Source: Gammaproteobacteria bacterium
GTDB taxonomy: Bacteria > Pseudomonadota > Gammaproteobacteria > UBA9214
Direction: 5' to 3'
Length of the DNA: 24,371 bases
Assembly (NCBI GenBank): GCA_032124375.1
Contig: JAQBDO010000032.1
Coordinates: 1-24,371 of the forward strand
The notes beneath the pieces were generated by a model. The model searched no databases. It was not told where the DNA came from and worked only from the letters and a program-made list of their open reading frames with translations. The position numbers and the translations under genes are program-made. Below are positions 641-16,800 of this stretch, piece after piece (position 1 is the stretch's first letter; each line of letters begins with the position of its first letter).

Positions 641-1786
641 ATGCGCAGTGCCCTGGCAGTCGCGGTCATCCTGCTCTGCGGCTGTGCAACTCTGCCAACT
701 ACCCGAACGCTCCTGCACGAGCCAATCCAGGTCATGGTCATCGAGGATGCGCCCGTCATGCAGGATGGCCGGGCGGGATTTCGCAAGGTCTTCTGCGCGA
801 GCATGCACACTGACGGGCTCCTGACTGGCGACGAGGATATATCCTGCGATCGCTGGCTGTGGCGCTTCCCGGACGAAGCGGAAGCAGGCAACAGCGAACC
901 CCTGGCCAGATCACCGCCTGGAAGACTCGCGGTATTCCTGGTCACCGGTGCGTTCAGCGAATGTGTCGGCGATGAGGCCAGGCCATTTTCCGCCGGTGCT
1001 GCACGGTTAAGCGCCAGCGGCGCCCACGTCGAGACTATCGTCGTCAGTGGCCGCTCCGGGAGCGATCATAACGGGCAACAGATCGCCAACGTGCTGGAGC
1101 ACGCCCGGTTGCGTGGCGACGAAACGACGGTTCTCGTAGGGTTCTCCAAGGGAGCGCTCGATATCCTGCATTTCCTGGTCAACTTTCCGGAACGCGCAAG
1201 CCAGGTGGATGCCGTCGTCAGCATCGCCAGCCCGATATTCGGCAGCCGCCTGGCTGACATGGCTGACCCGGTCTATTCGAATCTGCTGGCAAAGGTGCCC
1301 TACCCCGCGTGTCCGCCCGGCGACGGAAATATAATCCGCAGCCTGCGGACCGACACGGCGACGCAGTGGCTCGAATCAAACGCCCTGCCCGCGCATGTGC
1401 GCTATTACTCCCTGGCGAGTTTCACGACACGCGAACACGTGGCACGTGGACTGGTTTCAACCTGGAGGATCCTGAATCGCATTGATCCCCGCAACGACGG
1501 ACAGGTCATCGCGGCCGACGCCGTGATCCCGGGGGCTACGTTGCTCGGCTATACCAACGCGGACCACTGGGGTACGGCCACCACCATTGAATCCGTGCAC
1601 ACCTATCTCGGCGCACGCCCGGATCCGGCGCTCTTCCCGCTGGAAACGCTGTTTGCCTCGATCGTGCAGTACGTTTCTGCCGACCTTGCCATGAGCGCTG
1701 GCAACACAGGCTCAGCGCCTCGGCGTGGTCCCGGCCCGCACGACGAACGTCACCAGCCCCGGCAGGTTGTCGATACCGGGTTTTAG
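641..1786 (+). CDS. Lipoprotein alpha/beta hydrolase (lipase/esterase-like)
   Basis: ATG 641 gives signal peptide MRSALAVAVILLCG-C (lipobox-like). Nucleophile elbow GFSKG (GxSxG), candidate Asp in NDGQV, His in ADHW. The last ~25 codons are the antisense of a regulator fragment (see findings). The upstream GTG at 539 is less likely. Confidence 0.8.
   Translation: MRSALAVAVILLCGCATLPTTRTLLHEPIQVMVIEDAPVMQDGRAGFRKVFCASMHTDGLLTGDEDISCDRWLWRFPDEAEAGNSEPLARSPPGRLAVFLVTGAFSECVGDEARPFSAGAARLSASGAHVETIVVSGRSGSDHNGQQIANVLEHARLRGDETTVLVGFSKGALDILHFLVNFPERASQVDAVVSIASPIFGSRLADMADPVYSNLLAKVPYPACPPGDGNIIRSLRTDTATQWLESNALPAHVRYYSLASFTTREHVARGLVSTWRILNRIDPRNDGQVIAADAVIPGATLLGYTNADHWGTATTIESVHTYLGARPDPALFPLETLFASIVQYVSADLAMSAGNTGSAPRRGPGPHDERHQPRQVVDTGF
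1712..1786 (-). pseudogene. Diverged duplicate of the last 25 codons of the NarL/LuxR regulator at 4203-4847
   Basis: Minus strand reads LKPGIDNLPGLVTFVVRAGTTPRR*, versus LKLGIDNLPGLVKFAVRAGITTPRP* at 4203-4280. Manual alignment: 8 mismatches over 75 nt plus one 3-nt indel. Confidence 0.9.
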
Positions 1787-1949
1787 ATCGCCGGGCACCG
1801 CGGTCCTGCATTGGCATCCTGCAGCTCCCGCGTACGCAGGGAGCGCGCGCTTACCGCCGCACAGGCATCAGCTGAAACCGCTTCCCGATTGCACGGAAGT
1901 GATGACAGCAAGTGCCGGTGCCCGGGTGCTGGAGTTGTTTCACGACATC

Positions 1950-2012
1950 GTGTCCGTATTTTTACCTACGCGTTTTCCCGGATATCGAAGCGATTTGCCA
2001 GGTGCTAGTTTG
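1950..2012 (+). promoter_or_regulatory. Conserved 63-bp promoter module, copy A (upstream of the YsaB-like gene)
   Basis: GTGTCCG-TATTTTTA-CCTACG-N7-CCGGATATCG-N14-GTGCTAGTTTG; ungapped match to copies at 11912 and 13259. -35-position TATCGA (1983-1988), 17-bp spacer, TG-n-TAGTTT extended -10 (2006-2011). Confidence 0.7.
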
Positions 2013-2207
2013 CCTTCCTCTGGCCGACATACGGAACATTCATTGAGAAGACGAACATGTTCTGAAGAACCGGAGACAAATCACTCCCGGCTTTCGTTGT
2101 CGTCAACCCGCCGGATGAGAATCGATTTATTTCGGCTTCTGGCAACGGCGATAGCGTCATTACATGAATGGCGCTGGGAAGTTGCCCACCAACAGGAGAA
2201 ACGTTGT

Positions 2208-2795
2208 ATGAACAAGTACACAACCTGCCGTCTGCTGACGGGCAGCCTGATGTTTAGTGGCGCCGTCATCATGATGACGTTTACCGGCGTGGCGTCTGCC
2301 GAAGAGAACATTGCCATCGGTGACATGCCGCGTTATTGCCAGCTTGAAGCTGCCTCGGCTTTCGGTGTGAGTAACGACGACGTCATGACCTTGCCGGCGG
2401 AGAAAGATCACGGCAAGTACGTTGTTTACGGCCAGACGCCGGCAGAAGGACAAAACGCCCTGTTCTTCACCTGCAGGTTCAACGCGCACCGCCAGTTCGT
2501 CAAGGTCGATAAGCAATCGGACAACAGAACCCGTCCCCAGTCCGGGGGGAGCTCACATTCCCATGGCGGAGGCGGGATCGCCGTGAAGGATATGCCGAAG
2601 TACTGCGCCGGTGAAGCATCGGCGAAGTTCAGTCAACGCCCGAACCGTATCACCACCCAGAATGCGGTTGAAGACCACGGCATGTACTCCGTCTGGGGCC
2701 AGTATGAGGCGGAGCCCAACCCACAGCTCTTCATCTGTACCTTCTCCGCCGAAGGCAAGTTGGTCGGCGTGGATCTGCACAACCCCGGTGACTGA
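2208..2795 (+). CDS. Secreted protein with two tandem YsaB-like domains
   Basis: AGGAG at 2194-2198, ATG 2208, signal peptide ending VASA-EE. Two ~65-aa repeats (DMPRYC..EA...G.Y.V.GQ....F.C.F) separated by a Ser/Gly/His linker. The pattern resembles E. coli YsaB as recalled. Confidence 0.8.
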   Translation: MNKYTTCRLLTGSLMFSGAVIMMTFTGVASAEENIAIGDMPRYCQLEAASAFGVSNDDVMTLPAEKDHGKYVVYGQTPAEGQNALFFTCRFNAHRQFVKVDKQSDNRTRPQSGGSSHSHGGGGIAVKDMPKYCAGEASAKFSQRPNRITTQNAVEDHGMYSVWGQYEAEPNPQLFICTFSAEGKLVGVDLHNPGD

Positions 2796-2807
2796 TCCTT
2801 GTGGTTG

Positions 2808-2836
2808 AAAGAGCCCCGCCCTGGCGGGGCTTTTTT
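2808..2836 (+). terminator. Intrinsic terminator, probably bidirectional
   Basis: AAAG, stem AGCCCCGC / loop CCTG / GCGGGGCT, T-run to 2836; lies between convergent genes. Confidence 0.85.
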
Positions 2837-2921
2837 GCCTGCAGGGACGCCGGTAGCGACGCGATATGTTGCTGGCACCGCCACGCCTGTCTGTGCATGA
2901 AATGCTGACCTGCAGGCGCCC

Positions 2922-3329
2922 TCAAGAGCGCATCCCGTAGCGCGCTTTGAGCCATACCGCCGCCGTCCAGGTCAGCAGTGCGAACACCGCTCCCGCCAGC
3001 GCCGCGGCCCCCACACCGAGCAGTCGGTCCCCTGCTGACACCGTGACGCCCGGCTCGCCGCTTCCGAAGATCGATAACACCAGCATCGCGATGCCGCCGC
3101 CGGCCATCCCTTCCACTCCGACACGCAGGCCCGTCACCCACCTGCCGGGAGTGCCTGCAGCCAGGTACGCCTGCAGACGCAGGAAGGCGACCAGGCACAG
3201 CAGCGCGATGAGACCGACGAGCCACAGAAAACCGGGCGGAGGCGGTTTGTCCGCACCCAGCAGTGCAATGGCGACTGCCAGGACGAATAGTCCCGCCGCG
3301 CACGCCCCGGAAATGCTGCGGTTCGTCAC
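2922..3329 (-). CDS. Small integral membrane protein (~4 TM helices), unknown function
   Basis: Four hydrophobic segments; GGAGG 8 nt upstream of GTG 3329 (ORF track uses TTG 3347); convergent on the 2808 terminator. Confidence 0.7.
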   Translation of the reverse strand: MTNRSISGACAAGLFVLAVAIALLGADKPPPPGFLWLVGLIALLCLVAFLRLQAYLAAGTPGRWVTGLRVGVEGMAGGGIAMLVLSIFGSGEPGVTVSAGDRLLGVGAAALAGAVFALLTWTAAVWLKARYGMRS

Positions 3330-3721
3330 CCCTTCAGCCTCCAGCAAGCTTCGACCCCACCGTGCCCCTCATACCGCTGTCACCTGCGATCACAGTGCGT
3401 CCGCGATATTACCCACATCCCCTGGATATATGTAGCGTAAACCATACTTGAAATAACCATGAATTAACGCGTGTGTGAAGCAAGTCGCTGTATCGCAGAC
3501 TGGCATATCAGGCGCCGGACCACGTACAACATGTCGCGTCCCGGGCATCAGGATACTCCCAGCGACGATCCCGGCGGGAGGTTTAGGTGCAAACATGAAA
3601 ACTTTTGATAACGTAATCACTGCTGTCCCGTTAAATCATCACGATGATACTGCTAGTTGCTATATAGAAGCACAATGACCGCAGCTCAACCGTCCGAGAC
3701 ATGCACACGAACAGTCAGACA

Positions 3722-3991
3722 CGTCATCCCGGACGGCGCGAAGTAGAGATCCGGAATCCAGAGATTTTAGGAAACCCTGAATAAGTCGTCACCCCGGCGG
3801 AGGCCGGGGTCCAGTTTGTTGATTTTCCTGGATGATTCGCTTCGCTCACCCTGCGGGCCGCCCTCCGGGCGTTCAACGCGCTACGCGCTTTTGTCCGGCA
3901 TGTGCCGGAATGACGAAGGGGAACTTGTTCAGAGGTTCCTTTAGTGACTTACTGGATACCGGATAACGGCTGCGCCGTTTCCGGCATGACG
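3722..3991. repeat. Outer REP-like inverted doublet interrupted by a MITE
   Basis: Left arm CGTCATCCCGGA...CCGGAATCCAG (3722-3761); right arm CTGGATACCGG...CCGGCATGACG (3952-3991); the arms are inverted relative to each other. Confidence 0.8.
3770..3939. mobile_element. 170-bp MITE-like element with 16-bp TIRs and TTTA target duplication
   Basis: GGAAACCCTGAATAAG (3770-3785) / CTTGTTCAGAGGTTCC (3924-3939), 13/16 inverted match; TTTA at 3766-3769 and 3940-3943; no transposase. Confidence 0.7.
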
Positions 3992-4202
3992 ATGAAATGT
4001 TAACGGGACAGCAGTGTAACGGAGTACATAATGATGACAACTTCTCAGCAGTTCCACACCCTGGGAAACGGGGTCTGTCCCGGTTTTCCCCCGGTTTTCC
4101 CGGAGGACCGGACGCGGAACATTGCCGACACCGGGGCGCCGCTGCTTGCGAAACGCACGCTGAGTGATCGCAGGGAAAAGCTCCCCGCCAGCCAGCGCAG
4201 AA

Positions 4203-4847
4203 TCAGGGCCTTGGCGTGGTGATCCCGGCCCGCACGGCGAACTTCACCAGTCCCGGCAGGTTGTCGATGCCGAGTTTCAGCATGATGCGTGTGCGGTAGG
4301 TCTCCACTGTCCTGACGCTGATGCCAAGGGCCGCGGCGATCTCCTTCATTCGTCGCCCCTCCGCCAGCAGGCGCAGCACGTCACGCTCCCTGTCGCTCAG
4401 GTTGGCCTTGTCGAGTTCGATGCTGCGCAGCTGCGGCTGCGCCTCGGTCACCTGCCCGGCGGCCGGGCTGACAAATCGCTCCCCCCGCAGGGTAGCGGCT
4501 ATCGCTGTCACCAGGTCGTCGATCGCCTCGTTCTTGAGCACGTAGGCCGATGCGCCGGCCTCGAACATGCGCTCCTGGTAATGGGCGTCGCCGTACATGG
4601 ACAGCGCCACGATCTGTGTCTCCGGCGAAACCTGCCGGATACGGCGAGCCGCCTCCATGCCGTCCATGTGCGGCATCTCGACATCAAGCACGGCGATTTG
4701 CGGCCTGAGACGCTGCGCCAGCTGCACAGCCGCTTCACCGTCGTCGGCCTCGCCGACTATCTCCCAGTCAGCCTGCTTGCCGACCAGCAGCGCCAGGCCC
4801 TGGCGAAACAGTATGTGGTCATCTGCCAATAGCACGGTCAGTGTCAT
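4203..4847 (-). CDS. NarL/FixJ (LuxR-HTH) family response regulator
   Basis: REC domain (VLLADDH..., IAVLDVEMPHMDG, ALS, GASAYVLK) plus LuxR HTH (LSDRERDVLRLLAEGRRMKEIAAALGISVRTVETYR); ATGA overlap with the upstream gene. Confidence 0.95.
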   Translation of the reverse strand: MTLTVLLADDHILFRQGLALLVGKQADWEIVGEADDGEAAVQLAQRLRPQIAVLDVEMPHMDGMEAARRIRQVSPETQIVALSMYGDAHYQERMFEAGASAYVLKNEAIDDLVTAIAATLRGERFVSPAAGQVTEAQPQLRSIELDKANLSDRERDVLRLLAEGRRMKEIAAALGISVRTVETYRTRIMLKLGIDNLPGLVKFAVRAGITTPRP

Positions 4848-6025
4848 TCCCCTGGTACCTCCCTGTCAGGTATTCCCCTATTACAAGACTGTTGCGCTGC
4901 TTCCGCAACGGCCTCCTGCCCCTGTGCCAGGGGTATCTGTACACATAACCGCGTACCCGCCCCGTCCGATTCGATGGACAGACTGCCTCCCCAGAGTGAC
5001 AGTCGTTCGCCCGTGTTGAACAGGCCGTAACCACCTTCACCCGTCACCTGCGGGCCAATAACATCGTAATCGAAACCCCTGCCGTCGTCAGCGACAGTGA
5101 GTGTCAGCACATGCCCGTCGCAGCCCAGTTCCAGCCAGCCCCGGCTCGCCCCGGCATGCTTGACCATGTTGCAAACCAGTTCCCGCGCGCACTGGAACAC
5201 CAGCACGGCCAGCTCCCGGTCGAGTACCGGAACCGGCGAAGTTTCTGCAAACTCCACCGCCAACCCGAACCGCTGTGTCGTGTTCGCGGCCAGCCAGCGC
5301 AAAGCCGGCACGAGGCCCTCCCGGTAGAGCACCGGCGGGCTAAGATCGAACTGCAGGGTGCGCAATTCCTGCAGCGCCTCCCGCATCAGGTCCAGCCCCA
5401 CCTCCAGCAGGCGGTCCGATTCACTATCGCGGGACCTGGCAGCCGAGGCGACCTGCGCCTGGGCCAGGGCCAGCTTCTGCATCGGACTGTCGTGCAGCTC
5501 GCCGGCCAGGCGATTCTTTTCACGCTCCCCGACGCGGGTGATATCCATCGCCAGGCGCCGCAGCCTTGCATTGGCATCACGTAGCTCCCGCGTCCGCTCC
5601 GCCAGCGCCGACTCCAGATTGCGGGACAGGCGCCCGAGTTCCAGGTGGGTTTTCACCCGCGCGAGGAGCACCTTTATGTCAAAGGGCTTGAGCAGATAGT
5701 CAGCTCCGCCGCTGTCAAAGGCACGCACCATGGTCTCACTGTCATCCTTCCCGGTCAGAAAAATGACCGGGATATTCCGCGCGTCTTCACGGGACTTGAG
5801 GCGCCTGCAGGTCTCGATACCGTCAATCCCGCCGGGCATCAGGATATCCAGCAGCACCAGGTCGAGCCGTTTATCGAGCAGTATCGAATCCACTGCCTCC
5901 AGTGCCCGCTCACCGCTATCGGCCACATGCACCTGGTACCCCTGCCCGACAAGCAACTGGCCGAGAAAACGGATGTTTTCCGGCTCGTCATCCACAATCA
6001 GGATATTCCCGCGTGATACCGCCAT
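4844..6025 (-). CDS. Cytoplasmic REC-HisKA_3-HATPase histidine kinase (NarX/UhpB-type core with N-terminal receiver)
   Basis: N-terminal REC (ILIVDDE..., DLVLLDILMPGGIDG, KPF), coiled coil, H-box LAGELHD, N-box RELVCNMVKHAGA, G boxes DDGRGF and GYGL; GGAG RBS. Confidence 0.92.
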   Translation of the reverse strand: MAVSRGNILIVDDEPENIRFLGQLLVGQGYQVHVADSGERALEAVDSILLDKRLDLVLLDILMPGGIDGIETCRRLKSREDARNIPVIFLTGKDDSETMVRAFDSGGADYLLKPFDIKVLLARVKTHLELGRLSRNLESALAERTRELRDANARLRRLAMDITRVGEREKNRLAGELHDSPMQKLALAQAQVASAARSRDSESDRLLEVGLDLMREALQELRTLQFDLSPPVLYREGLVPALRWLAANTTQRFGLAVEFAETSPVPVLDRELAVLVFQCARELVCNMVKHAGASRGWLELGCDGHVLTLTVADDGRGFDYDVIGPQVTGEGGYGLFNTGERLSLWGGSLSIESDGAGTRLCVQIPLAQGQEAVAEAAQQSCNRGIPDREVPGE

Positions 6026-6080
6026 TAATTGCTCCGCTGTATTGCTCCGTCAGTTACCCCGAATTGATTGGCCATCCGGC

Positions 6081-6324
6081 CGGTAAACCCCCTCTCCCAG
6101 CGGGAGAGGGTTGGGGAGAGGGAATCGAATGACAGGCCAATCTTCCTGATTCATGTCCCATCATCCTCGGTAACTGCTCCTGCATTACCCTACCGCCTGC
6201 ATCCCTGCAGTCGTGCCCTTCTCCCGCAGGGAGAAGGAATGCGACTTTCCACATCCAGGATGCTTCTTGCGATATAGCCTTTCCCTGCGTTCCGACCCTT
6301 CGCCTAAAGGCGAGGGGTTTACTG
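6081..6324. repeat. REP-like composite element bounded by inverted repeats, inside the signalling operon
   Basis: CGGTAAACCCC (6081-6091) / GGGGTTTACTG (6314-6324), 10/11. Hairpins CCCTCTCCC-AGC-GGGAGAGGG (6090-6110), CCTTCTCCC-GCA-GGGAGAAGG (6217-6237) and CCCTTCGCCT-AA-AGGCGAGGGG (6296-6317). Confidence 0.75.
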
Positions 6325-6342
6325 ATCCCCTATACGGGGACT

Positions 6343-8976
6343 CTAAATTGATTCCGGACAACTACCACCTCCAGCCTGTCCCTCTCTGCTGCTGTCCGTC
6401 CCGTCTGCGGCTTCGCGACTTGCCATGTTACCGCCCCCTTCCAGCAGGCGTCTTAGCCCGGCGATATCGAATTCGTCCGCGAGGGTGGCGACGTGCTGCG
6501 CCAGGACCGGGCAGCAACCATCCGCGACCAGCTCTTCCGCCATCACCTTGATGGCAGTAACGCTCCCGGCCCGTATCAACCCGGCCAGGCGTTCACGGCG
6601 TTCGTCTCCCATCACTTCCATCCCGGGCGGCGACACCTCCCGCACCTGTTCTTCACCCAGCCATTCGAGGGGCAGCAGTGACCCTACAACCTCGAGCAAC
6701 GCATCACGCAGCACTGGCTTGGCAAGATGGGCATTGCAGCCGGATGCAAGCGCCCTGTCGCGATCCTCGCTGTAGGCGGCGGCGGTGACTGCCACGACAG
6801 GGATCTCACGCAGTACAGGGTTCGCGCGCAGGGCGCGCGTTGCCTGCAAACCGTCCATGCCTGGCATGCGCAGATCCATGAGGATGAGATCCGGCAGCTC
6901 GGCAGCGGCTTTCGCAACGCAGGCCTTGCCATGTTCCGCTTCATTTACACGAAAGCCAAGCGGCTCCAGCAAGCCACGCAGTATCTGCCGGTTGTCATAT
7001 TCGTCATCCACGACGAGGATGTGCAGCGGCCCCTGCCCGGTGGTACGCCGGTACCCGACCGTACTGGCAGCAGGGGACGGAATTGCCATCGTCCTGGCGG
7101 GGCAGCCCACGGTCTCCACGGGGAGACTCACCCGAAAACAGCTGCCCTCGCCGGGCTTGCTCTCGACGGAGATTGTTCCGCCCATCGCCTGCACCAGCTG
7201 CCGGGTAATGGCCAGCCCGAGGCCGGTACCCTGGATTGCATGCACACTGTCACCGACCTGCCGGAAAGGTTCGAAAATCTGCTCCTGCTGCGCCGGCAGG
7301 ATGCCGATCCCCGTGTCGGTCACTGCCAGTTCCAGGTTTCCGTCGTTATAGTCCGCGCGCACGGTCACCGTGCCGGCCTCGGTGTACTTGATTGCATTGT
7401 CCACCAGGTTCGCAAGGACCTGGTGCAGACGCCTGGCGTCGCAGTAGAGCCGGCGCGGCAACCCTGACAACGGTTCGATACGCAACTCGATCCCCTTTTT
7501 CCGGGCGCGCCCGCCAAACATGCCTGCCAGCTCCTGCAGCAGCTCGACGCTGTCCCATTCCACGGGCAGCAATTCGAAGTTGCCTGCCTCGATCTTCGCC
7601 AGGTCAAGTACATCGTTGATCAGTTCCAGCAGGCGTTCCCCGCCCCTGCGTATCCCGCGCGCGTGCTGGCGCTGATCTGCAAGCAGCCGTTTGTCGCCCT
7701 CCAGCAACTGCGCGAAGCCGAGCACCGAGTTCAGCGGGGTGCGCAACTCGTGGCTCATGCTGGCCATGAAAACATCCTTGGCACGGTTGGCGGCATCCGC
7801 TTCCTCGTGTGCCTTGCGCAGCCGGTCTTCCAGCGCCTTGTCCCTGTCAATATTCTCCACGAGCCAGATGGAGCCCAGCGTCGTATCGTTCGGGTCGATG
7901 AACTGGCCGATCAGCCGACCCCAGAAGCGGCTGCCGTCCTTGCGCTGCAGCAACTGGTCAGCACGGTAGATACCACCATCCGCCATGCGCATATATCCCA
8001 GCCTGCCGAGCCTCTCGTATGCCTCCCGGCCGGGGTACAGGTGTTCGGTGCTCATGCCGAGCATCTCCTGCTCTTCCCAGCCAAACAACTCCACTGCGCG
8101 CGGGTTGACGCGCACGATCGACCGGTCGACCAGGTGAACGACGCCGAGCGGCAGGGCGTCCAGGATCAGGCGCTGCTCCCGCACGAGTGCATCCAGTGTG
8201 CGGGTGCGATCTTCCACGAGCTGCTCCAGATGCTCGCGGATATTGGTAAGATCCCGCTCGTGCCGCTGGACCTGCTCCAGCATGGTGTTGAAGCCGCGAT
8301 ACAATTCCGCTATCTCGTCGTTCGAATCCGGCACGGATACCCGCAGGGAATAGTCCGCCCGCGCCGAGATCTCCTGTGTCTTGGCCGCCAGCTGCAGGAT
8401 GGGGTCCGAAACCCGCCGTTGCAGACGCAGCGCCAGCAGCAGCGACACCACCAGGGTCAACAGCAGCAGAGCCGCCGAAATAGCGGCGTAGCGCCGCAGC
8501 TGGCTGGCCAGCTGCTCCATGCCGGCGTAAAGGTAAATCTGCCCGACACGTCGCCCCTCAAGCATCAGGACCCGCACGACCTCGACGGTACCGGCGCCAC
8601 CAAACAGGGTAAAATCCACGAGCACACCCTCACCTGCCACCCGTGGGTCTCGTGGTGCCTGTGTTTCATCCCGGCTGTAGCGGGCGAAGACTTGGCCCTC
8701 GGCGTCGTACAGGGCTGCGTAGCGGATCTGGTTTTCCCGGCGCAGACTGGCGAGGTTTTTCTCCGCCGTTTCGGGTGCGTCGAATACCAGGGCCGACAGG
8801 CTGTTCTCGCCAACCACGACCGACAACACCTCCAGGTCCCGCACCATCTGGCCCTGCAACATGTAGACATCGTTGACGATGAACAGCGTGCCTGCGACGC
8901 TCAGCGTGAGCATGCTGATGGCTGCGGAGATCCGCAGCAGGCGCTGCCGTATCGAGGTCGGCTGCAGCAGGCTCAT
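6343..8976 (-). CDS. Membrane-bound hybrid sensor kinase: TM-periplasmic sensor-TM-HAMP-PAS-HisKA-HATPase-REC
   Basis: Two TM segments, HAMP (PILQLAAKT...DEIAELYRGFNTML), PAS, H-box FMASMSHELRTPLNSV, N-box LANLVDNAIKYT, DTGIGI, GTGLGLAI, REC (ILVVDDE, DLILMDLRMPGMDG, KP); ATGA overlap with the upstream gene. Confidence 0.95.
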   Translation of the reverse strand: MSLLQPTSIRQRLLRISAAISMLTLSVAGTLFIVNDVYMLQGQMVRDLEVLSVVVGENSLSALVFDAPETAEKNLASLRRENQIRYAALYDAEGQVFARYSRDETQAPRDPRVAGEGVLVDFTLFGGAGTVEVVRVLMLEGRRVGQIYLYAGMEQLASQLRRYAAISAALLLLTLVVSLLLALRLQRRVSDPILQLAAKTQEISARADYSLRVSVPDSNDEIAELYRGFNTMLEQVQRHERDLTNIREHLEQLVEDRTRTLDALVREQRLILDALPLGVVHLVDRSIVRVNPRAVELFGWEEQEMLGMSTEHLYPGREAYERLGRLGYMRMADGGIYRADQLLQRKDGSRFWGRLIGQFIDPNDTTLGSIWLVENIDRDKALEDRLRKAHEEADAANRAKDVFMASMSHELRTPLNSVLGFAQLLEGDKRLLADQRQHARGIRRGGERLLELINDVLDLAKIEAGNFELLPVEWDSVELLQELAGMFGGRARKKGIELRIEPLSGLPRRLYCDARRLHQVLANLVDNAIKYTEAGTVTVRADYNDGNLELAVTDTGIGILPAQQEQIFEPFRQVGDSVHAIQGTGLGLAITRQLVQAMGGTISVESKPGEGSCFRVSLPVETVGCPARTMAIPSPAASTVGYRRTTGQGPLHILVVDDEYDNRQILRGLLEPLGFRVNEAEHGKACVAKAAAELPDLILMDLRMPGMDGLQATRALRANPVLREIPVVAVTAAAYSEDRDRALASGCNAHLAKPVLRDALLEVVGSLLPLEWLGEEQVREVSPPGMEVMGDERRERLAGLIRAGSVTAIKVMAEELVADGCCPVLAQHVATLADEFDIAGLRRLLEGGGNMASREAADGTDSSREGQAGGGSCPESI

Positions 8977-9524
8977 TGCATCACCTCTGCCACATCGTAG
9001 AGCTGGGCCGATATCACCAGGCCCCGCTCCCTGAGCGCCGCCGGGTCGATGCGCAGGCGCAGGCGCTCTGTCTTGCGGAAGACGTCCGGCTTGCGAAACA
9101 GCTCGATGGCGACACCGCGACCGGCGTATCCCGGGGTATCACCGACCAGCAGTACGGGCTGACCGGCGGTGCGCCGGACGATGGCCTCGAGTTCCGCATC
9201 GGCGGCGCCGCCCACGAACAGGATCTCGCAGCAATCAGGTGCGCCGGGATATGCGTAGGCGTGAATTGCAATCGGCCTGCCGTTGACCTGCCTGGATTCC
9301 TGCTCCAGGACGCGCAGGCGGTTTTCCATGACCGGATCGCCGACGACGCCGATGACGAAGGGCTGATCCGCCGGGGCCTCGGGCCACTGGATGAAGCGGG
9401 TGAAGTTGTAGATGAATGCGACCTTCAGGTCAGCGAGCAAGCTGTCGCCCTCTGCGCTGCCCGCCAACGGCGACTGCACACAACACAGTACGAACGCGAG
9501 CAGCAGCACAGCGCAGCGCGGCAT
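8973..9524 (-). CDS. YfiR/DUF4154-family periplasmic protein
   Basis: Signal peptide, then LKVAFIYNFTRFIQWP, CEILFVG, VLLVGD..GYA..GVAIEL, LRLRID..ALRERGLVISAQL, typical of YfiR-like proteins; ATG 9524 preferred over 9557. Confidence 0.85.
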   Translation of the reverse strand: MPRCAVLLLAFVLCCVQSPLAGSAEGDSLLADLKVAFIYNFTRFIQWPEAPADQPFVIGVVGDPVMENRLRVLEQESRQVNGRPIAIHAYAYPGAPDCCEILFVGGAADAELEAIVRRTAGQPVLLVGDTPGYAGRGVAIELFRKPDVFRKTERLRLRIDPAALRERGLVISAQLYDVAEVMQ

Positions 9525-9544
9525 GACCAGTAGACCTGACTTGC

Positions 9545-11653
9545 TCAAAATTCCCAACCGACTGTCGCGGTGAACACCCTCCCCGGCCCGATCAGGCCCT
9601 GATCGAAGTCGGTCAGTTCATTGGCAGGGTAGCGGATCTCGGTGTCAAGCAGGTTCGAGACATTCAGGTCCGCGTAGAATCCGTTGGCAGGGTGCCTGTA
9701 GCGCAGGTTTGCGCCCAGGTTCCAGTACGCGTCGACTTCCTTGCCGATGCGCTCGGTGATGCCCTGTGTCGTGCCTTCCACGAAATTCCAGTCCGCTTCC
9801 ATCTCGTCAACGTAGTTGGCATAAGCCGCGTAGGTGAAAGGCCCGCGTGTATAGTCCGCCTTGAGCTTTAACAGCAGTTGCGGCGAGTATCCGGGATCAT
9901 TATTCGATTTGCGGTCCTCGGTATGCTGCCAGGTGGCGCTTGCTGCGAGATTCAGGCCGTCCAGCAGACGCAGCTCCCCGATCAGCTCCAGGCCGTTGGT
10001 CTTCCATTCGCCCGAGTTGTCATCGACGGGCTGGTACAACCCGGCATCGTCCAGCTGCTGAATTGTGCGGACAATATTGGAGATACGGTTCTGGAACAGG
10101 CTTGCGCCAATGCTCCAGTCAGAGCGAGTCTGCACGTAGTTGATCTCGGCGGTCTTGATGCGTTCGGGATCGGTAAGCTGGATCTGGTCATTGTCCTGCG
10201 CCGCAGTGCCGTAGATCAGTTTCAACACCTGGTGCGCATCGAGGCTGTAAAGGGCAGCGATCCGCCCGGTGACGATGTTCCGGTCGTCGACGGTGACATC
10301 CTCTTCCAGCCGGGTGTTATTCAGGTAATCCCGGCTGGTGTAGTCATACGAGTCCGGCAGCCGTGACACGCGCAAACCGCCGACGAACCGGAGTCGCGTG
10401 GTAGGACTCCAGCCCAGTTCCGCGAACAAATCGTGAACCGTAAAGGCATCGACGGTGTTTTCCTGATTGCCAAAAATGTCAATGTCGGCTTCGTTCCTGA
10501 TGTCGTCCATGCGCTGAAAGCGATAACCCGCCAGCAGGTTGAGATTCGCCCGCGGATCCCACAGGAGATTGAATTCCAGCTCATAGCGTCTTGATTGTTG
10601 CCGTTGATCGCCATCGAATGCGGGTGAAATAAGATCGAGATCCGGGATCTCGACACGTTCATCACTGACGATCGCATCGGCGCTCAGCCCCAGGTTTTCG
10701 GTAATACCATGTTTCCAGCCAAGCGCGGCATGCCACGTGGTCAGGCGCGACTGGTTGCCGTCGTCGAAGCTCGGTGTCAACCCGTATATGCCGTATTTCT
10801 TCTCGCTGTAGCGCAGGTCCGCCGACCAGTCCTGCCAGCCAGCAGACACATCCAGGCTGACATCTCTCTGATCCACATCTCCGTCGAGGCTGGTATGCAT
10901 GCCCGGCACCAGCGCCGCGAGCTGATCAGGTCCCATCATGTCAGCATAGTCTGCCTCGAGACCGTCGGTGCGGTAACCGCCGGCATTCAGCACGATGAAC
11001 CCGTCTGCGGACGCCGTCCCGGCGCGCGCGAACAGGCGGCCGCTGTCACGGCTACCGGCACTCGCGGATACCCGGGGACCGTTCAGGCCGATCTCGTTGG
11101 TCACCACGTTGATCACACCGAGGAAGGCGTTGTTACCGTAGATGACAGACATGGGCCCGCGAATCACCTCGATGCGATCGATGGACTCCACGGGGATGTT
11201 CAGGCGTGCGATCTCGGGAACCGTCAACGACTTTTGCCGTGACGGGTGCTGCGGAACCCCGTTGACGAGGAACTGGACTCCACCACCCGTGGTACCGCGA
11301 TTGCCGATGAAGCGGTCCTCGATGTTGTCCAGCACAAAAAATCCCGGCACGTTGCGCAGCAGTTCCTCGAAGGTAACCCAGCCGTAACGGGCAATCTCCT
11401 CGCGGCTGAGGATGGTCACGCTGGCCGGAATATCGCGGATCTGCTCGTCACGCTTGCCGGCTGAGCGAATCTCTACATCGAGCAGGTCTTCGAAGGGCAG
11501 ATCGAGCAGGCCGGCCTGCGGGCCCGGCAACGCTACCGGCGATGCGATGCTGAGGCCCAGTGCGAGTGCCCCGGCAATGCAAAATGCATGGATCCGTATC
11601 CCGGTGATTCGGCTGCAACCACCCGCGAGTCCGGTTCGCACACCCTGCTGCAT
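9545..11653 (-). CDS. TonB-dependent outer-membrane receptor (plug + beta-barrel)
   Basis: Plug motifs LLDLPFEDLLDVEIRSAGKRDEQIRDIPASVTILSREEI and IDRIEVIRGPMSVIYGNNAFLGVINVVT; C-terminal NLLD...GRVFTATVGWEF ending in Phe. Start is uncertain (ATG 11653 chosen; ORF open to 11899). Confidence 0.92.
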   Translation of the reverse strand: MQQGVRTGLAGGCSRITGIRIHAFCIAGALALGLSIASPVALPGPQAGLLDLPFEDLLDVEIRSAGKRDEQIRDIPASVTILSREEIARYGWVTFEELLRNVPGFFVLDNIEDRFIGNRGTTGGGVQFLVNGVPQHPSRQKSLTVPEIARLNIPVESIDRIEVIRGPMSVIYGNNAFLGVINVVTNEIGLNGPRVSASAGSRDSGRLFARAGTASADGFIVLNAGGYRTDGLEADYADMMGPDQLAALVPGMHTSLDGDVDQRDVSLDVSAGWQDWSADLRYSEKKYGIYGLTPSFDDGNQSRLTTWHAALGWKHGITENLGLSADAIVSDERVEIPDLDLISPAFDGDQRQQSRRYELEFNLLWDPRANLNLLAGYRFQRMDDIRNEADIDIFGNQENTVDAFTVHDLFAELGWSPTTRLRFVGGLRVSRLPDSYDYTSRDYLNNTRLEEDVTVDDRNIVTGRIAALYSLDAHQVLKLIYGTAAQDNDQIQLTDPERIKTAEINYVQTRSDWSIGASLFQNRISNIVRTIQQLDDAGLYQPVDDNSGEWKTNGLELIGELRLLDGLNLAASATWQHTEDRKSNNDPGYSPQLLLKLKADYTRGPFTYAAYANYVDEMEADWNFVEGTTQGITERIGKEVDAYWNLGANLRYRHPANGFYADLNVSNLLDTEIRYPANELTDFDQGLIGPGRVFTATVGWEF

Positions 11654-11911
11654 GGCAAAGACGCACCTGAGATGTTCCGCAAGCCGGGATGCTGCGTGAT
11701 ACGGAGAACTGCGAGAATTCAACACACTTGAAAGCCTTTTCCGGTGATCCTGGAATCCTGACGTGCTTTTATACCACATCACCAAAGTGCTACGGTAAGG
11801 CGAGGACCCGGACGGCAGGACGTGCCGAATCCCGCGTCGGCAACGCAACAGGGTTAATGTGCAATCCGAATCACCACGGCTTAACGGGAGAAACATCACA
11901 CCAGGCGCCGC

Positions 11912-11974
11912 CTGTCCGGTATTTTACTGACGCAAAATACCGGATATCGGTACAGGTGACGGGATGATATCGTG
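11912..11974 (+). promoter_or_regulatory. Conserved 63-bp promoter module, copy B (divergent region between TBDR operon and DUF4349 gene)
   Basis: CTGTCCG-GTATTTTA-CTGACG-N7-CCGGATATCG-N14-ATGATATCGTG; TATCGG (11945-11950), 17 bp, TG-n-TATCGT (11968-11973). Confidence 0.7.
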
Positions 11975-12112
11975 AGTTTGCAAGTGGCATTTTTCATGTA
12001 TTGCCTCCAGGAAACAAGCCGTTGTCATCACGTTTCCACGTCGATCTGACTGGTTTGATCGTTATCGCTCGACACAGGAAAGCGGCCTGACAGATCCCCC
12101 CCCTCCTCACAC

Positions 12113-12138
12113 GGCGGCCCCAGGGTCGCCTTTTTTTT
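12113..12138 (+). terminator. Intrinsic terminator in the leader upstream of the DUF4349 gene
   Basis: GGCGGCC-CCAG-GGTCGCC stem (one G-U pair) followed by T8 (12131-12138). Confidence 0.7.
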
Positions 12139-12204
12139 GAGGGTGCCGGGCGCTGCTATTGCCGCTCTCCTTGCCACGATGCGGACGCTCGAACGCTGAA
12201 CGAA

Positions 12205-13173
12205 ATGAGGTTTCCGATGCACAGCTTATGTCTTCCCATGATCGCGGTTGCGCTGGTGCTTGCAGGGTGCGAACAACAGGGCACGCAGAATCAGCGCGGG
12301 GATAGCACAGCGACAGCTGACTACACCGCGATGCCGCCTGCGGCACCGCCTCCCCCCGTTGCATTCGACGTCGGTGATAGCGAGTCACGCAGCGACACCG
12401 CGGCCGTCGCTATTGACGCCGATGCCGCAGACGACAGCAGCACCGGCCCTTCCGGCAGCACCGGGATGCTGCTCGCCTATCGCTATTCTGTCAGCCTGCA
12501 GTTACCTGCCCGTAACGTCCACCCTGCGATCGAGGCGCACCGGGCACAATGCAGTGCCGCAGGCCCGAACGTGTGCCAGGTACTGAGTTCCTCGATCACC
12601 GCGTACGGCGACGACGACATCAGCGCCAGTCTCTTCATCCGTGCCGTGCCGGACTGGCTGGCGACATTTCGCGGCAGGCTGGAGGCCGATGCGCAAACGG
12701 CGCATGGCAGGGTCGTTTCATCGAATGTGCAATCGGAGGACCTGACAAGGGTCTTTGTCGACACCGAGGCGCAACTGCGCGCAAAGCGCACACTCCGCGA
12801 ACGACTGGAGACCCTCCTTGCCAACCAGAGCGGCGACATTGGCGATCTGCTGGCGGTCGAGCGCGAGCTGGCAAGGGTGCAATCTGAACTCGACGCTGCA
12901 CAGGCGAACCTCGAAATCGTGCGCAAGCGCATTGACATGTCGACACTGGACCTGAGTTACCAGTCCGCGCCGGCGGCGCTCAGCCAGAGTGCCTTCGCAC
13001 CGATCGGTAGTGCGTTCAACAACTTCATGGAGATCTTTTCCCGGGCAGTAGCGCTGATCATCAAGCTCATTGCGGGTTTGACGCCTTTCGTCCTGCTCGG
13101 CGTGCCGCTTGGATGGCTGCTGCGGCACTGGTGGCGCCGGCGCCAGACTGGCAAGGCCGCAAATGGGGATTGA
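12205..13173 (+). CDS. DUF4349-domain lipoprotein / membrane protein
   Basis: Lipobox VLAG-C, low-complexity linker, LLAYRYSVSLQ, SEDLTRVFVDTEAQLRAK...DLLAVERELARVQSELD, C-terminal TM helix; start could be ATG 12217. Confidence 0.85.
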   Translation: MRFPMHSLCLPMIAVALVLAGCEQQGTQNQRGDSTATADYTAMPPAAPPPPVAFDVGDSESRSDTAAVAIDADAADDSSTGPSGSTGMLLAYRYSVSLQLPARNVHPAIEAHRAQCSAAGPNVCQVLSSSITAYGDDDISASLFIRAVPDWLATFRGRLEADAQTAHGRVVSSNVQSEDLTRVFVDTEAQLRAKRTLRERLETLLANQSGDIGDLLAVERELARVQSELDAAQANLEIVRKRIDMSTLDLSYQSAPAALSQSAFAPIGSAFNNFMEIFSRAVALIIKLIAGLTPFVLLGVPLGWLLRHWWRRRQTGKAANGD

Positions 13174-13258
13174 GGTGGTAGCAGCAACGCCTGCCATAGA
13201 ATAGCGGCATGAGCCGGCACGCCGCGGCGCGGCTCGGAATTCGCCAGACAACTCCTGG

Positions 13259-13321
13259 CTGTCCGTGTTTTTACTGACGTAGATAACCGGATATCGATGC
13301 TCGTGACAGGGTGATAGTTTG
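13259..13321 (+). promoter_or_regulatory. Conserved 63-bp promoter module, copy C (upstream of the BON gene)
   Basis: CTGTCCG-TGTTTTTA-CTGACG-N7-CCGGATATCG-N14-GTGATAGTTTG; TATCGA (13292-13297), 17 bp, TG-n-TAGTTT (13315-13320). Confidence 0.7.
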
Positions 13322-13477
13322 CCGCTCAGGCACTCGGTCTATTATACCCGCGAGTCCCTGGCAGCATTCATCGACCATCGAGAGCGACCATTTTGACTGC
13401 TACCACATGCGTTAATGTCAGGCTGCACAGGCAGCCATAGCGCAGGCTTCATTCATCATCAAACTGGAGAATTACTC

Positions 13478-14023
13478 ATGACAAGAACCATCAGAAACAA
13501 GTCGTTACTGGCTGCTATCGTATCAGTAATACTGGCATCCCCCGCGAGCTTCGCGGAGACCGCAGGCGAATACATCGACGACACGACTGTCGGCACCATG
13601 ACCAAGGCCGCGCTCGTGGATAACGAGACGGTTTCCGCACTGGACATCAATGTGGAGGTTTACAAGGGCAATGTACAGCTGTCCGGATTCGTCGAGTCCG
13701 AGGCACAGAAGGACGCCGCACTGGCGACTGCCGGTAAAGTCGACGGCGCAAAAAAGGTGCTTGATGCCATCGTTGTCCTGCCCGGTTCACGCAGCATGGG
13801 TGAGGCCGTGGACGACACCACCATCCAGGCAAAACTGAAAGCCGGCCTGGCCAATGTCCAGGGAATGGGTGACGCCGTGGCCATCAATACGTGGGTCAAG
13901 CACGGCCACGTCCTGCTTGCGGGTTTCGTTGACAGCGACAGTGTGAAAGCCGCAGCAGGAAAAGTCGCCAGCGGCATCGAGGGCGTCAAGAAAGTCCACA
14001 ACCACATCGCCATCAAGCATTAA
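13478..14023 (+). CDS. Periplasmic double-BON-domain protein (OsmY-like)
   Basis: GGAG RBS at 13466-13469; signal peptide ending SFA-ET; two BON repeats (IDDTTVGTMTKAALV...INVEVYKGNVQLSGFV; VDDTTIQAKLKA...GHVLLAGFV). Confidence 0.92.
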   Translation: MTRTIRNKSLLAAIVSVILASPASFAETAGEYIDDTTVGTMTKAALVDNETVSALDINVEVYKGNVQLSGFVESEAQKDAALATAGKVDGAKKVLDAIVVLPGSRSMGEAVDDTTIQAKLKAGLANVQGMGDAVAINTWVKHGHVLLAGFVDSDSVKAAAGKVASGIEGVKKVHNHIAIKH

Positions 14024-14229
14024 GGCAAGGACCCCTGCTGGACAAGTGCCCTGACCCGCCGGACTGCAGCGGGTCTGGGCCCTGACTGGCCGGAGCGAGT
14101 GGCACAGGGACAGTGAGGTAGCACCCTGTTTGGTAACACAGCAGGCCGGGTGGCAGGCAGTCTCCGACTGCCTTCACCACCTGTTTGCTGCAGAGCATAA
14201 CCCGGTACTCAGGAACGAGGCAAAGAAGC

Positions 14230-15021
14230 ATGCACATCACTCTCTGCACAAGATTTGTAACCGCACCACTTCTGCTGACTGTCTTCGCGCTGCTGGCAGC
14301 GCAGCCTGCAATTGCCGGCAGGGATATCCACACCGAGCGGGTACACTTCAGGCACGGCGCGAACAATGCTGTAATCGAGGCTTCGATCACCGGTTATGAA
14401 GTCGTCGATTATGTCCTGCGCGCCAGCAAGGGACAGCACATGAACGCCAGCATGGCCACCGACAACGGCGCCAACTACTTCAACATCCTCGCGCCGGGTG
14501 AGGACGAGGTCGCGATGTTCAACGGATCCATCAGCGAGAACCAGTATGAGGGTAGCTTGCCCGAGACTGGCGATTACAAAATCCGTGTCTACATGATGCG
14601 CAGCGCTGCGCGCCGTAATGAAATTGCGAACTACCGCCTCGAGGTGATCATAACCGGCGAGACAGCCCCGCCGGCTGATGCACAGCAGGATACCGCTGCT
14701 TCCGAGGTCACAACCCGTGCTGGAGAGGGCAATTTCGACGCAACCGGGAAAATCCCCTGCGCACAACACGCAGGCCAACCTGTGGGACAGTGCGATTTTG
14801 GTGTCGCGCGCGCCGGCGGCGGCACAGCCACGGTAGTCATTACCAGGCCGGATGGCAGCACACGTGCGCTGTTCTTTGTCGAGGGTAAATTCACCAGCGC
14901 CGACACGTCAGAGGCGGATGGCCATCCTGAATACAACGCAGAGCGCGAGAGCGATCTCAACCTGATTCGCGTCGGCAAGGAACGCTACGAGATACCCGAT
15001 GCAGTCATCTGGGGCGGGTAG
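14230..15021 (+). CDS. Secreted two-domain protein: PliG-like (g-type lysozyme inhibitor fold) N-domain plus Cys-containing C-domain
   Basis: Signal peptide ending AIA-GR. VHFRHG...ITGYEVVDYVLRASKGQ...SLPETGDYKIRVY..RSAARRN...Y resembles E. coli PliG as recalled. C-domain FDATGKIPC...QCDFGVARAGGG. Confidence 0.75.
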   Translation: MHITLCTRFVTAPLLLTVFALLAAQPAIAGRDIHTERVHFRHGANNAVIEASITGYEVVDYVLRASKGQHMNASMATDNGANYFNILAPGEDEVAMFNGSISENQYEGSLPETGDYKIRVYMMRSAARRNEIANYRLEVIITGETAPPADAQQDTAASEVTTRAGEGNFDATGKIPCAQHAGQPVGQCDFGVARAGGGTATVVITRPDGSTRALFFVEGKFTSADTSEADGHPEYNAERESDLNLIRVGKERYEIPDAVIWGG

Positions 15022-15109
15022 CCAATCATTGGAGCCCTGTGATGAGCGACCCTAGGTTCGGCATTTCAGGCAGAACCTGTCCATCAAAGGGACAAAAGAA
15101 GAAGAGAAA

Positions 15110-15427
15110 ATGAAAACCTTACTGGTCTTCATTCTGGGCGCAATCGTCGGCGGTATTGCGTGCATCGTACTTGCCTCGGGCCTGTTCACCGGCATCGGGG
15201 CCGGCGTCGGTATTGCCACCGGCCTGCAAGCCGGCGCCTGCCTCACGGTGGAAGCGGCCAGGGAGCAGGGACTGATCACGGCCGAACAGGTCGATGAGGT
15301 ACTCGTTGCGGCAGGCAAACTGATCACCTCGGAAGAATATGCCGGCACAGCGACAGCTTCGGGCAGTGATCTGGACTGTGAGAAGATTATTGCCCAATTA
15401 AAGGAAGCCACAAAGAAGGCAGAATAA
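15110..15427 (+). CDS. Small Gly-rich membrane-anchored hypothetical protein
   Basis: ATG 15110 after a purine-rich RBS-like stretch; hydrophobic Gly-rich N-terminal half, acidic C-terminal half with two Cys. Confidence 0.75.
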   Translation: MKTLLVFILGAIVGGIACIVLASGLFTGIGAGVGIATGLQAGACLTVEAAREQGLITAEQVDEVLVAAGKLITSEEYAGTATASGSDLDCEKIIAQLKEATKKAE

Positions 15428-15607
15428 GCCATTCTGCTGATCACCCCCCAAGCCTTGGGCAGGCTGTTTGCGGGACGATGTAGCGTCGCATGCAGGAAGC
15501 CTGCATACACTATCCCGGTCGCGAACGGCACTGTGCTACTGCAGGTCGAGGGTGTAAAAACGATCCGGGAACGCGACGGCCTGTGAATGTTCCCTGGCAA
15601 ACTTATG

Positions 15608-15628
15608 CTGTCCGGTTTTTCACTGACA
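15608..15628 (+). promoter_or_regulatory. Partial copy D of the promoter module (upstream box only)
   Basis: CTGTCCG-GTTTTTCA-CTGACA with the same 8-bp T-rich spacer; the downstream CCGGATATCG and -10 parts are not conserved. Confidence 0.5.
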
Positions 15629-15800
15629 GAAACCACCCGCAAGACACTGGTAATATGCGGCGGCAGGGTACGCTTTGACTACATGACTGGTTTTCATTCG
15701 CTAACGGCTTGCCAGGTCAGCAGTCAATGCAAACCGGGAATCACTAACTGCATAACACAACTTTACGTGCCAACACTGCTCCGGCACTCAGGAGGTCACA

Positions 15801-16082
15801 TTGGAAGAACAAATAGGTACGGGCATCGGCATCGTTGCCGGGCTGTTGATTCTGGCGGTATTCGGCGGCATCGTCGGCTGGATCGCCAGCCTGTTGATCA
15901 AGGGCACCGGGCTGGGCCTGGTCGGCGACATCATCCTGGGCATTGTCGGCGCCGTCGTCGGCGGCTGGTTGTTCCAAGCGCTTGGCCTTACCATCGGTGG
16001 CGGCATCATCGGCGCGTTTGTGCCGGCACTGGTGGGTGCTGTCGCGGTGCTGCTCATCGTTAAAGCAATCAAGCGGGCCTGA
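15801..16082 (+). CDS. GlsB/YeaQ/YmgE family (transglycosylase-associated) stress membrane protein
   Basis: AGGAGG at 15790-15795 then TTG; GGIVGWIASLLIKGTGLGLVGDIILGIVGAVVGGWLF...ALVGAVAVLLI signature. Confidence 0.9.
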   Translation: MEEQIGTGIGIVAGLLILAVFGGIVGWIASLLIKGTGLGLVGDIILGIVGAVVGGWLFQALGLTIGGGIIGAFVPALVGAVAVLLIVKAIKRA

Positions 16083-16085
16083 TAC

Positions 16086-16688: not shown

Positions 16689-16800
16689 GGCGAGCCCATC
16701 TCAAAATACGATTCTGCAGGAATACGCAGAGCCCCATGCCCTGCTCCGTACTCATGTGCCGCTATGAATAAGCCTCGGCACAACAAGCATATTTCTTCAA

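Follow-up and report, generated by a model that had tools for sequence, protein, structure and literature searches.

A repeated inverted-repeat promoter box upstream of envelope-protein genes beside a NarL-type signalling operon in an uncultured sediment gammaproteobacterium

Comparison with described sites of the NarL/FixJ family

UvrY/GacA, a regulator of the NarL/FixJ family, is associated with the upstream activating sequence TGTAAG-N6-CTTACA (18 nucleotides, nt) at the csrB/csrC and rsmY/rsmZ promoters, and isolated extra half-sites occur near the main UvrY repeat at csrB and csrC (PMC4682653). Here, a 20-bp inverted repeat, TGT(C/A)CG-N8-CG(G/T)ACA (the box), was analyzed in promoters of envelope-protein genes located around a signalling operon that encodes a NarL/FixJ-type response regulator. 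The stretch studied (the window) comprises positions 1 to 24,371 of contig JAQBDO010000032.1 (C32) of assembly GCA_032124375.1 (G000; 2.38 Mb, 445 contigs, 82% complete), assigned to Gammaproteobacteria UBA9214. As at the UvrY/GacA sites, the 6-nt half-sites are inverted, begin with TGT and end with ACA; a genome has only a few such sites, located upstream of sigma-70 promoters, and the binder would likewise be a phosphorylated dimer of a response regulator with a GerE helix-turn-helix (HTH). Because inverted 6-nt half-sites are the target type of GerE-type HTH dimers such as UvrY/GacA, this likeness supports the NarL-type regulator as the candidate reader of the box. The spacer is 8 nt and not 6, however, the half-sites are TGTCCG/TGTACG and not TGTAAG, and the box is centred at -44.5 or -57.5. 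The targets are mostly protein-coding envelope genes instead of Csr/Rsm small RNAs, and the window regulator is encoded in its own kinase operon and has no shown orthology to UvrY/GacA. Given the differing spacer and inner bases, the box was not classified as a UvrY/GacA site.

In enterobacteria, the RcsB box lies just upstream of the -35 element or overlaps it, and its targets include osmB, osmC and other genes of the envelope and osmotic stress responses. The window locus resembles the Rcs system in having a NarL/FixJ-type regulator at the predicted end of a multi-step phosphorelay from the outer envelope, a box overlapping the -35 of weak promoters, and an output of small stress proteins of secreted, lipoprotein or membrane type (BON/OsmY-like, YeaQ/GlsB-like). 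It differs in the box sequence, in its sensors (a TonB-dependent receptor, a YfiR-like protein and a CHASE8 hybrid kinase, versus RcsF, IgaA, RcsC and RcsD) and in the absence of an Hpt protein from the window operon. NarL recognizes 7-2-7 heptamer sites, and LuxR-type lux boxes are centred near -42.5. These are also inverted repeats bound by GerE-type HTH dimers, at varied distances and in a class II-like manner when overlapping the -35, but the window box differs in half-site sequence and in its 8-nt T/A-rich spacer, and no autoinducer-binding domain is present here.

A full-text literature search for the sensor arrangement (DUF4154, TonB-dependent receptor, histidine kinase) found no paper, so that no output of it appears to have been described, and a search for CHASE8 returned only papers on cyclic di-GMP. 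The box and its predicted target set provide a concrete, testable operator for an uncharacterised two-component system that starts at a TonB-dependent receptor and a YfiR-like protein.

The repeated module and its two promoter layouts

Three ungapped copies of a module of about 63 nt (starting at 1951, 11913 and 13260) and a shorter copy at 15609 were found on the forward strand, all where a preliminary description of the window had placed them. The composite pattern TGTCCG-N8-CNNAC-N8-CCGGATATCG-N15-TGNTANNNT matched exactly at 1951-2011, 11913-11973 and 13260-13320, and was absent from all 100 dinucleotide-preserving shuffles, also when up to two mismatches were allowed. Pairwise identity reached 38-47/66 (58-71%) in the 66-nt module and 11-17/60 (18-28%), i.e., the random level, in the adjoining 60 nt on each side; the 35 invariant columns out of 66 were grouped in blocks, and the edges were sharp. 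The spacings given in the preliminary description were right (14 nt between CCGGATATCG and (G/A)TGnTA, 17 nt between TATCG(A/G) and TAnnnT), as was its portrayal of a poor -35 combined with an extended -10: TATCG(A/G) agreed with TTGACA at only one or two of six positions, and TGnTAnnnT was present. The extended -10 elements of the four window copies (TGcTAGTTT, TGaTATCGT, TGaTAGTTT and TGgTAATAT) were conserved in the metagenome relatives L035 and L042, and a scan for consensus sigma-70 promoters reported none of the four window sites. Gene calls and Pfam domains agreed with the claim that all copies face forward-strand genes for secreted or membrane proteins (YsaB-like, DUF4349, BON, GlsB/META).

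The box had been introduced as an imperfect dyad. The inverted repeat held, but its second half had to be redrawn to give a TGTCCG-N8-CGGACA-like sequence, which is clearest outside the three full copies: the boxes at 15609, on contigs C192 and C444, and at metagenome locus L058 were one mismatch from the ideal palindrome. Scanning the genome with a weight matrix made from seven boxes, a check that the preliminary description had proposed, yielded additional sites, of which three were intergenic, on other contigs of G000 (C444:3275, C329:2369 and C192:6026-6046), each facing a gene. The four genes flanking the operon, first taken as the whole regulon, are thus accompanied by at least three further box-promoters. 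The extra sites harbored TAnnnT hexamers (TATGGT, TATAAT, TATGAT) 22-23 nt past the box in gene-facing orientation, with the same geometry as at 15609; these are good -10 hexamers, without TG. The pattern TGTMCG-N8-CKKACR-N22/23-TANNNT gave four exact matches in G000 (reversed control, 1) and none in 53 other genomes of the order (reversed controls, 0-2 each). Palindromes with at most one mismatch were mildly enriched in G000 at spacer 8 (13, versus 6 to 11 at other spacers); since this enrichment is only mild, the specificity of the box lies in box plus promoter context.

Two layouts were distinguished, the TAnnnT hexamer being taken as -12 to -7. In type A (1951, 11913 and 13260), the box spans -67 to -48 (centre about -57.5) and is followed by CCGGATATCG (-40 to -31) and an extended -10. 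CGGATA, the core of CCGGATATCG, occupies -39 to -34, the usual place of the -35 hexamer, and resembles the right half-site CGGACA. In type B (15609, C192:6026, C329:2388 and C444:3294), the box spans -54 to -35 (centre about -44.5), a class II-like position, and overlaps the -35, with TAnnnT 22-23 nt downstream. The copy at 15609, previously regarded as partial, is instead a complete promoter of this second type and has an extended -10 of its own (TGgTAATAT, 15648-15656), which relatives keep. The distance to the -10 is 27 nt for CGGATA in type A and 28 nt for the proximal half-site in type B, which suggests that type A consists of the dyad plus a third half-site filling the -35 position. To our knowledge, this putative three-half-site layout has no direct counterpart. 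One box at two distances from the -10 would represent a natural pair for activation by a NarL-family dimer, class I-like versus class II-like.

The features of the window are as follows.

1951..2011 (+): type A promoter 1, with box at 1951-1970 (TGTCCG-N8-CCTACG), CCGGATATCG at 1978-1987, -10 TGcTAGTTT at 2003-2011, and predicted +1 at about 2018
2208..2795 (+): YsaB-like gene with signal peptide, behind promoter 1 (Pfam YsaB, 29.6 bits versus a cutoff of 27)
2818-2836 (+): intrinsic terminator after the YsaB-like gene, with a terminator-like hairpin and T-run at 2818-2830; RNA coverage in metatranscriptome X17 stops at 2820
4203..4847 (-): NarL/FixJ-type response regulator (REC and GerE HTH by Pfam), candidate box binder, with recognition-helix region ISVRTVETYRTR
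4844-6025 (-): REC-HisKA_3 kinase (Pfam)
6343-8976 (-): CHASE8-HAMP-PAS hybrid kinase (Pfam)
8973-9557 (-): YfiR/DUF4154 protein (Pfam)
9545 to about 11725 or 11899 (-): TonB-dependent receptor (Pfam)
11913..11973 (+): type A promoter 2, with box at 11913-11932, CCGGATATCG at 11940-11949, -10 TGaTATCGT at 11965-11973, and predicted +1 at about 11980
12113..12138 (+): intrinsic terminator in the DUF4349 leader, GGCGGCC-CCAG-GGTCGCC followed by T8
12205..13173 (+): DUF4349 gene downstream of promoter 2 (Pfam PF14257, E 2.7e-37)
13260..13320 (+): type A promoter 3, with box at 13260-13279, CCGGATATCG at 13287-13296, -10 TGaTAGTTT at 13312-13320, and predicted +1 at about 13327
13478-14023 (+): BON/OsmY-like gene (Pfam BON), first in the promoter 3 operon (13478..15427), with the start set by 181-aa homologs
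14185-15021 (+): 278-aa protein with signal peptide, promoter 3 operon
15110-15427 (+): 105-aa membrane protein, promoter 3 operon
15609..15656 (+): type B promoter 4, with box TGTCCG-GTTTTTCA-CTGACA at 15609-15628, a 22-nt spacer, -10 TGgTAATAT at 15648-15656, and predicted +1 at about 15663
15801-16082 (+): Transgly_assoc (GlsB/YeaQ family) gene downstream of promoter 4 (Pfam)
16086-16688 (+): META-domain gene after the Transgly_assoc gene (Pfam)

The reading of these sites as co-regulated promoters of one regulon, now covering seven sites with a dyad operator in two architectures, is considered highly probable, and a bacterial regulon of the ordinary kind is well supported. The regulon would comprise at least seven transcription units, encoding the YsaB-like, DUF4349 and BON/OsmY-like proteins, the GlsB/YeaQ-like protein with META, a holin-like/AI-2E operon and two paralogous secreted proteins. 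The paralogs are open reading frames (ORFs) of about 500 aa (C444:1568-3166 and C329:650-2209, i.e., L061 and L062; 533 and 520 codons between stops) that share 77-81% identity, carry signal-peptide-like N-termini and each lie behind a type B box-promoter; no Pfam domain was found in either ORF. At the remaining extra site, the box-promoter precedes an operon that encodes a 162-aa protein together with a holin-like membrane protein and a transporter of the AI-2E family. This assignment would place DUF4349, META, YsaB-like and unnamed secreted proteins in one co-regulated envelope-stress response of an uncultured sediment gammaproteobacterium. The box-promoter contig C444 (L061) also matched an Rfam group II intron domain at 1388-1463 (46.7 bits; gathering score 40).

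Other promoter and operator classes were compared with the modules, the sigma-54, FliA, extracytoplasmic function (ECF), Pho, LexA and RpoS sites being judged against consensus sequences. The modules displayed no GG-N10-GC (sigma-54), no TAAA -35 (FliA, the genes not being flagellar either) and no AAC/CGT elements (ECF, the spacing being wrong as well). CTGTC direct repeats recur every 15 nt and not every 11 as in a Pho box, CTGT and ACAG are separated by N14 and not by N8 as in a LexA site, and an RpoS-type -13C was found only in copy 1. A second promoter with TTTAC as -35 had no usable -10. Promoter 2 lies where the receptor operon and the DUF4349 gene diverge; on the minus strand, its box is not followed by TAnnnT at N22/23, as bidirectional use for the receptor operon would involve.

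Conservation, distribution and transcription

BON homologs from metagenomes formed a graded series, from 98% down to 50% identity. L035 (labelled Gammaproteobacteria UBA9214) and L042, with BON proteins 82-83% identical, were syntenic with the window, and the gene order of the signalling operon (4844..11899, minus strand) was identical in L035. A near-identical promoter 3 module follows the DUF4349 gene in both relatives (L035:8004, L042:770), and the box-only form precedes a GlsB-like gene (L035:12345, L042:5243). The module before the DUF4349 gene (L035:6704) kept the box, CGGATA and GACGGGATGATA, its middle block being partly degenerate; the module-2 box thus lies between the signalling operon and DUF4349 both in the window and in L035. 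In alignments with L035 and L042, both box halves, the T-rich spacer, CGGATA and the -10 region were retained at orthologous positions, and some neighbouring intergenic stretches diverged in syntenic relatives while the promoter blocks persisted. The block-wise conservation, the box, CGGATA and -10 kept in relatives, and the small number of intergenic, gene-facing sites bear out the original view of a selected promoter and no recent duplication.

Compared with L035:8070-10000 and L042:840-2770, the window (13320-13480) loses similarity about 20 nt after the -10 of promoter 3; in L035 and L042, promoter 3 is separated from BON by three additional genes, whose products of 106, 230 and 105 aa have no Pfam domain. 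Promoter 3 of the window was therefore joined to BON by deletion, or the relatives gained an insertion. At more distant BON loci (59-76% identity; L038-L041, L043 and L044), neither module nor box was found, and the signalling operon was not nearby. BON, Transgly_assoc, PLD-like, META, OmpA-like and AI-2E transporter genes were clustered again in L044 and L058, which suggests that such a neighbourhood of envelope-stress genes recurs, also at loci that lack the box.

The full module is confined to this contig within G000, which harbors in total three full and four box-only sites, all intergenic and all facing genes. It was not found in 40 relatives (pattern search with 2 mismatches) nor, by DNA search, in the other members of the genus (36 genomes). 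When all species-representative genomes were scanned for the exact pattern, six scattered matches in unrelated phyla were returned, where about four were estimated by chance; these six are taken as chance. A metagenome pattern scan gave one match, without the rest of the module. The possibility of a repeat family, named in the preliminary description as an alternative to be checked, was not borne out, the copies being few, never against gene orientation and unlike repetitive extragenic palindromes (REP) or miniature inverted-repeat transposable elements (MITE). Among the other 53 genomes of the order, no orthologs of BON, the CHASE8 kinase or the regulator were found, the best identities being 36% for BON, 36% for the CHASE8 kinase (kinase core only) and 37% for the regulator; as these three proteins have no orthologs there, the whole locus is confined to a narrow lineage or to an island.

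Several sediment metatranscriptomes contain genes of the locus, and the assembled contigs of four of them (X3, X17, X20 and X25) were placed on positions 1500-16800. X3 displayed a flat depth of about 16 over everything, which looks like DNA carry-over. In X17, X20 and X25, depth was zero over 1500-2010 and positive from 2011, the X17 and X25 contigs both beginning at 2032, 14 nt past the predicted +1 at 2018; the X17 coverage of this first unit ended at 2820, beside the terminator at 2818-2836. Depth was zero over 12231-13252, and an X17 contig began at 13357, 30 nt past the predicted +1 at 13327, with X17 contigs spanning the promoter 3 operon with gaps (13357-15355). Transcription in these runs starts just downstream of modules 1 and 3, and the RNA contig ends fit promoters inside them, although contigs cannot fix the exact +1. 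The signalling operon was almost silent in X17, X20 and X25.

The leader of promoter 2 (11980-12140, about 160 nt) carries a strong terminator (GC stem plus T8) that ends 66 nt before the DUF4349 start. Its stem is kept in L035 via pair-preserving changes (G-U to G-C and G-C to G-U), and the loop differs. The terminator may act as an attenuator or may mark where a small RNA of about 160 nt ends. The window gave no Rfam match at the gathering score except a tRNA, and nothing credible at E<=1 in 11900-12260; a known RNA family was accordingly set aside as the cause of the conservation.

The surroundings of promoter 1 displayed traces of rearrangement. The 3' end of the regulator gene recurs as a direct repeat of about 75 nt (1712-1786 versus 4203-4280; about 85% identical, with a 3-nt indel), which brackets a 2.4-kb islet containing promoter 1 and the YsaB-like gene. 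In view of this duplication, the promoter-gene cassette appears inserted at the end of the regulator gene. Over 3544-4054, X3 depth climbs from its level of about 16 to 111, and loose ends are numerous at 3769-3940; a multi-copy repeat is therefore placed there, consistent with REP/MITE.

The candidate regulator and alternative explanations

The account favoured on balance is that of activator-dependent sigma-70-type promoters sharing one dyad operator, with the adjacent NarL-type regulator as the candidate activator. The signal would pass from the TonB receptor to YfiR, the hybrid kinase, the REC kinase and finally the NarL-type regulator (4203-4847), which, once phosphorylated, would bind the 20-bp inverted repeat as a dimer and replace the missing -35 contact. 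The box would serve activation rather than repression, with CGGATA as a putative additional half-site. Judged from sequence comparisons, the assignment of the box to this regulator is plausible, and if the sites do form one regulon it would be rather probable.

Regulator homologs were widespread at 70-78% identity, always in an operon of hybrid kinase, REC-HisKA_3 kinase and regulator, the sensors varying; the closest regulator orthologs (P0124-P0134) reached 76-98% identity. L058 encodes a regulator 77-78% identical to that of the window, in an operon of two histidine kinases and the response regulator with an SBP_bac_3 sensor. Its divergent intergenic region harbors CTGTCCGGTTTTTCACGTACAG, then CCGGGATAT and a TAGAGT hexamer, with the box-to-hexamer distance of type A, and there is another box-like element 76 nt upstream. 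Apart from the kinases and the regulator, the neighbourhoods in the window and in L058 share no genes for signalling or DNA binding, and the regulator is the only shared DNA-binding protein. Conversely, the regulator ortholog, the CHASE8 kinase and the box-promoters were jointly missing from the 53 genomes of the order. In regulators of box-bearing lineages, the recognition helix starts with I(S/G)VRTVETYR(T/N)R, versus SAKT(V/A)ETYR(S/G)R at box-less loci.

Several findings weigh against this account or limit its reach. The earlier claim that the adjacent regulator binds the box was strengthened by the co-occurrence in L058 and the co-absence in the order, and weakened by the other orthologous loci: no box was found within 10 kb of five regulators that are 72-75% identical (L059, L060, L065, L066 and L067), and genome G452, which encodes one of them, had no genome-wide excess of boxes over control. 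The preliminary description had also asked whether the box occurs in genomes without the regulator; the order lacks both, but this co-absence amounts to a single evolutionary event. The correlation of helix and box is confounded with phylogeny, effectively two lineages versus one clade. Between types A and B the box moves by 14 nt, which does not correspond to an integral number of helical turns. The contig-derived 5' ends lie 14-30 nt beyond the predicted starts and not about 7 nt after the -10, and TATTAT at 13340-13345, which is not conserved in relatives, is an alternative -10 with a better fit to the end at 13357. The DUF4349 gene behind promoter 2 had zero depth in X17, X20 and X25, where promoters 1 and 3 were active. 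Contigs C32, C192, C329 and C444 had a GC content of 57.4-59.9%, against 54.6 +/- 2.5% for the assembly, with ordinary tetranucleotide profiles; the box-bearing contigs may be islands or a co-binned strain, which bears on the claim of one regulon in one cell.

Some of these points would suit another dimeric factor, encoded elsewhere (LuxR/GerE-type, LysR-type or similar), that binds the operator, the adjacency of the operon being coincidental or due to a shared island. This explanation is regarded as unlikely, though it draws on the box-less regulator orthologs at 72-75% identity, on the three of seven sites that lie on other contigs away from the operon, and on a genome completeness of 82%, at which candidate factors cannot all be listed. 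It accounts poorly for the recurrence of the box in L058 beside the orthologous regulator operon, whose products are the sole shared signalling and DNA-binding proteins, for the absence of both box and regulator across the order, and for a recognition-helix variant that tracks the presence of the box. An alternative sigma factor of the ECF type, with CCGGATATCG and TGnTAnnnT as its -35 and -10 and the box as a separate or accessory element, appears very unlikely. CCGGATATCG is indeed invariant in the three copies and L035:8004, better conserved than the box, and stands at the -35 position without resembling TTGACA. Yet the -10 is of the standard extended housekeeping type, type B promoters dispense with CCGGATATCG while keeping the box and TAnnnT (TATAAT, TATGAT, TATGGT, TAATAT), and in L058 the CGGGATA element is shifted by 3-4 nt with the box-to--10 distance unchanged. 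Moreover, Pfam searches of the window detected no gene for a sigma or anti-sigma factor, and the AAC-type -35 and CGT-type -10 typical of ECF promoters are not present.

Also very unlikely, finally, is an origin of the modules as remnants of duplicated promoters, or as a small mobile or recombination element, without a common trans-acting factor. Copies 1-3 do lie within 11.4 kb, and copy 1 is in the islet of about 2.4 kb between duplicated regulator 3' ends, with the multi-copy repeat (depth spike at 3544-4054) near it. Against such an origin stand the block-wise conservation with randomised spacers and random flanks, the retention of the same blocks in relatives with 82-83% protein identity, and the reuse of the box in another promoter layout beside unrelated genes on other contigs and in L058. 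The module is, besides, neither abundant nor ever found against gene orientation, and no terminal inverted repeats or target duplications surround it.

Returning to the favoured account of a NarL-type activator, a more specific version of it is put forward tentatively, as a possibility. In this version, a lineage-restricted TonB receptor/YfiR/CHASE8/REC-HisKA_3 system would employ a NarL-type regulator with new specificity (SVRTVETYR(T/N)R) for an undescribed 6-8-6 palindrome used in two geometries, one of them with three half-sites that take the place of the -35, and would control an Rcs-like envelope-stress regulon that includes the leader-terminated transcript before DUF4349. No regulator ortholog was found at E<=1e-65 in a class-wide sample of 400 genomes. 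The closest solved relatives of the regulator were VraR, NarL and DesR, RcsB ranking lower among the PDB matches. In L060 (5421-7260), the hybrid kinase of the orthologous operon was cut at its 5' end by an IS21-type insertion carrying rve and IstB genes.

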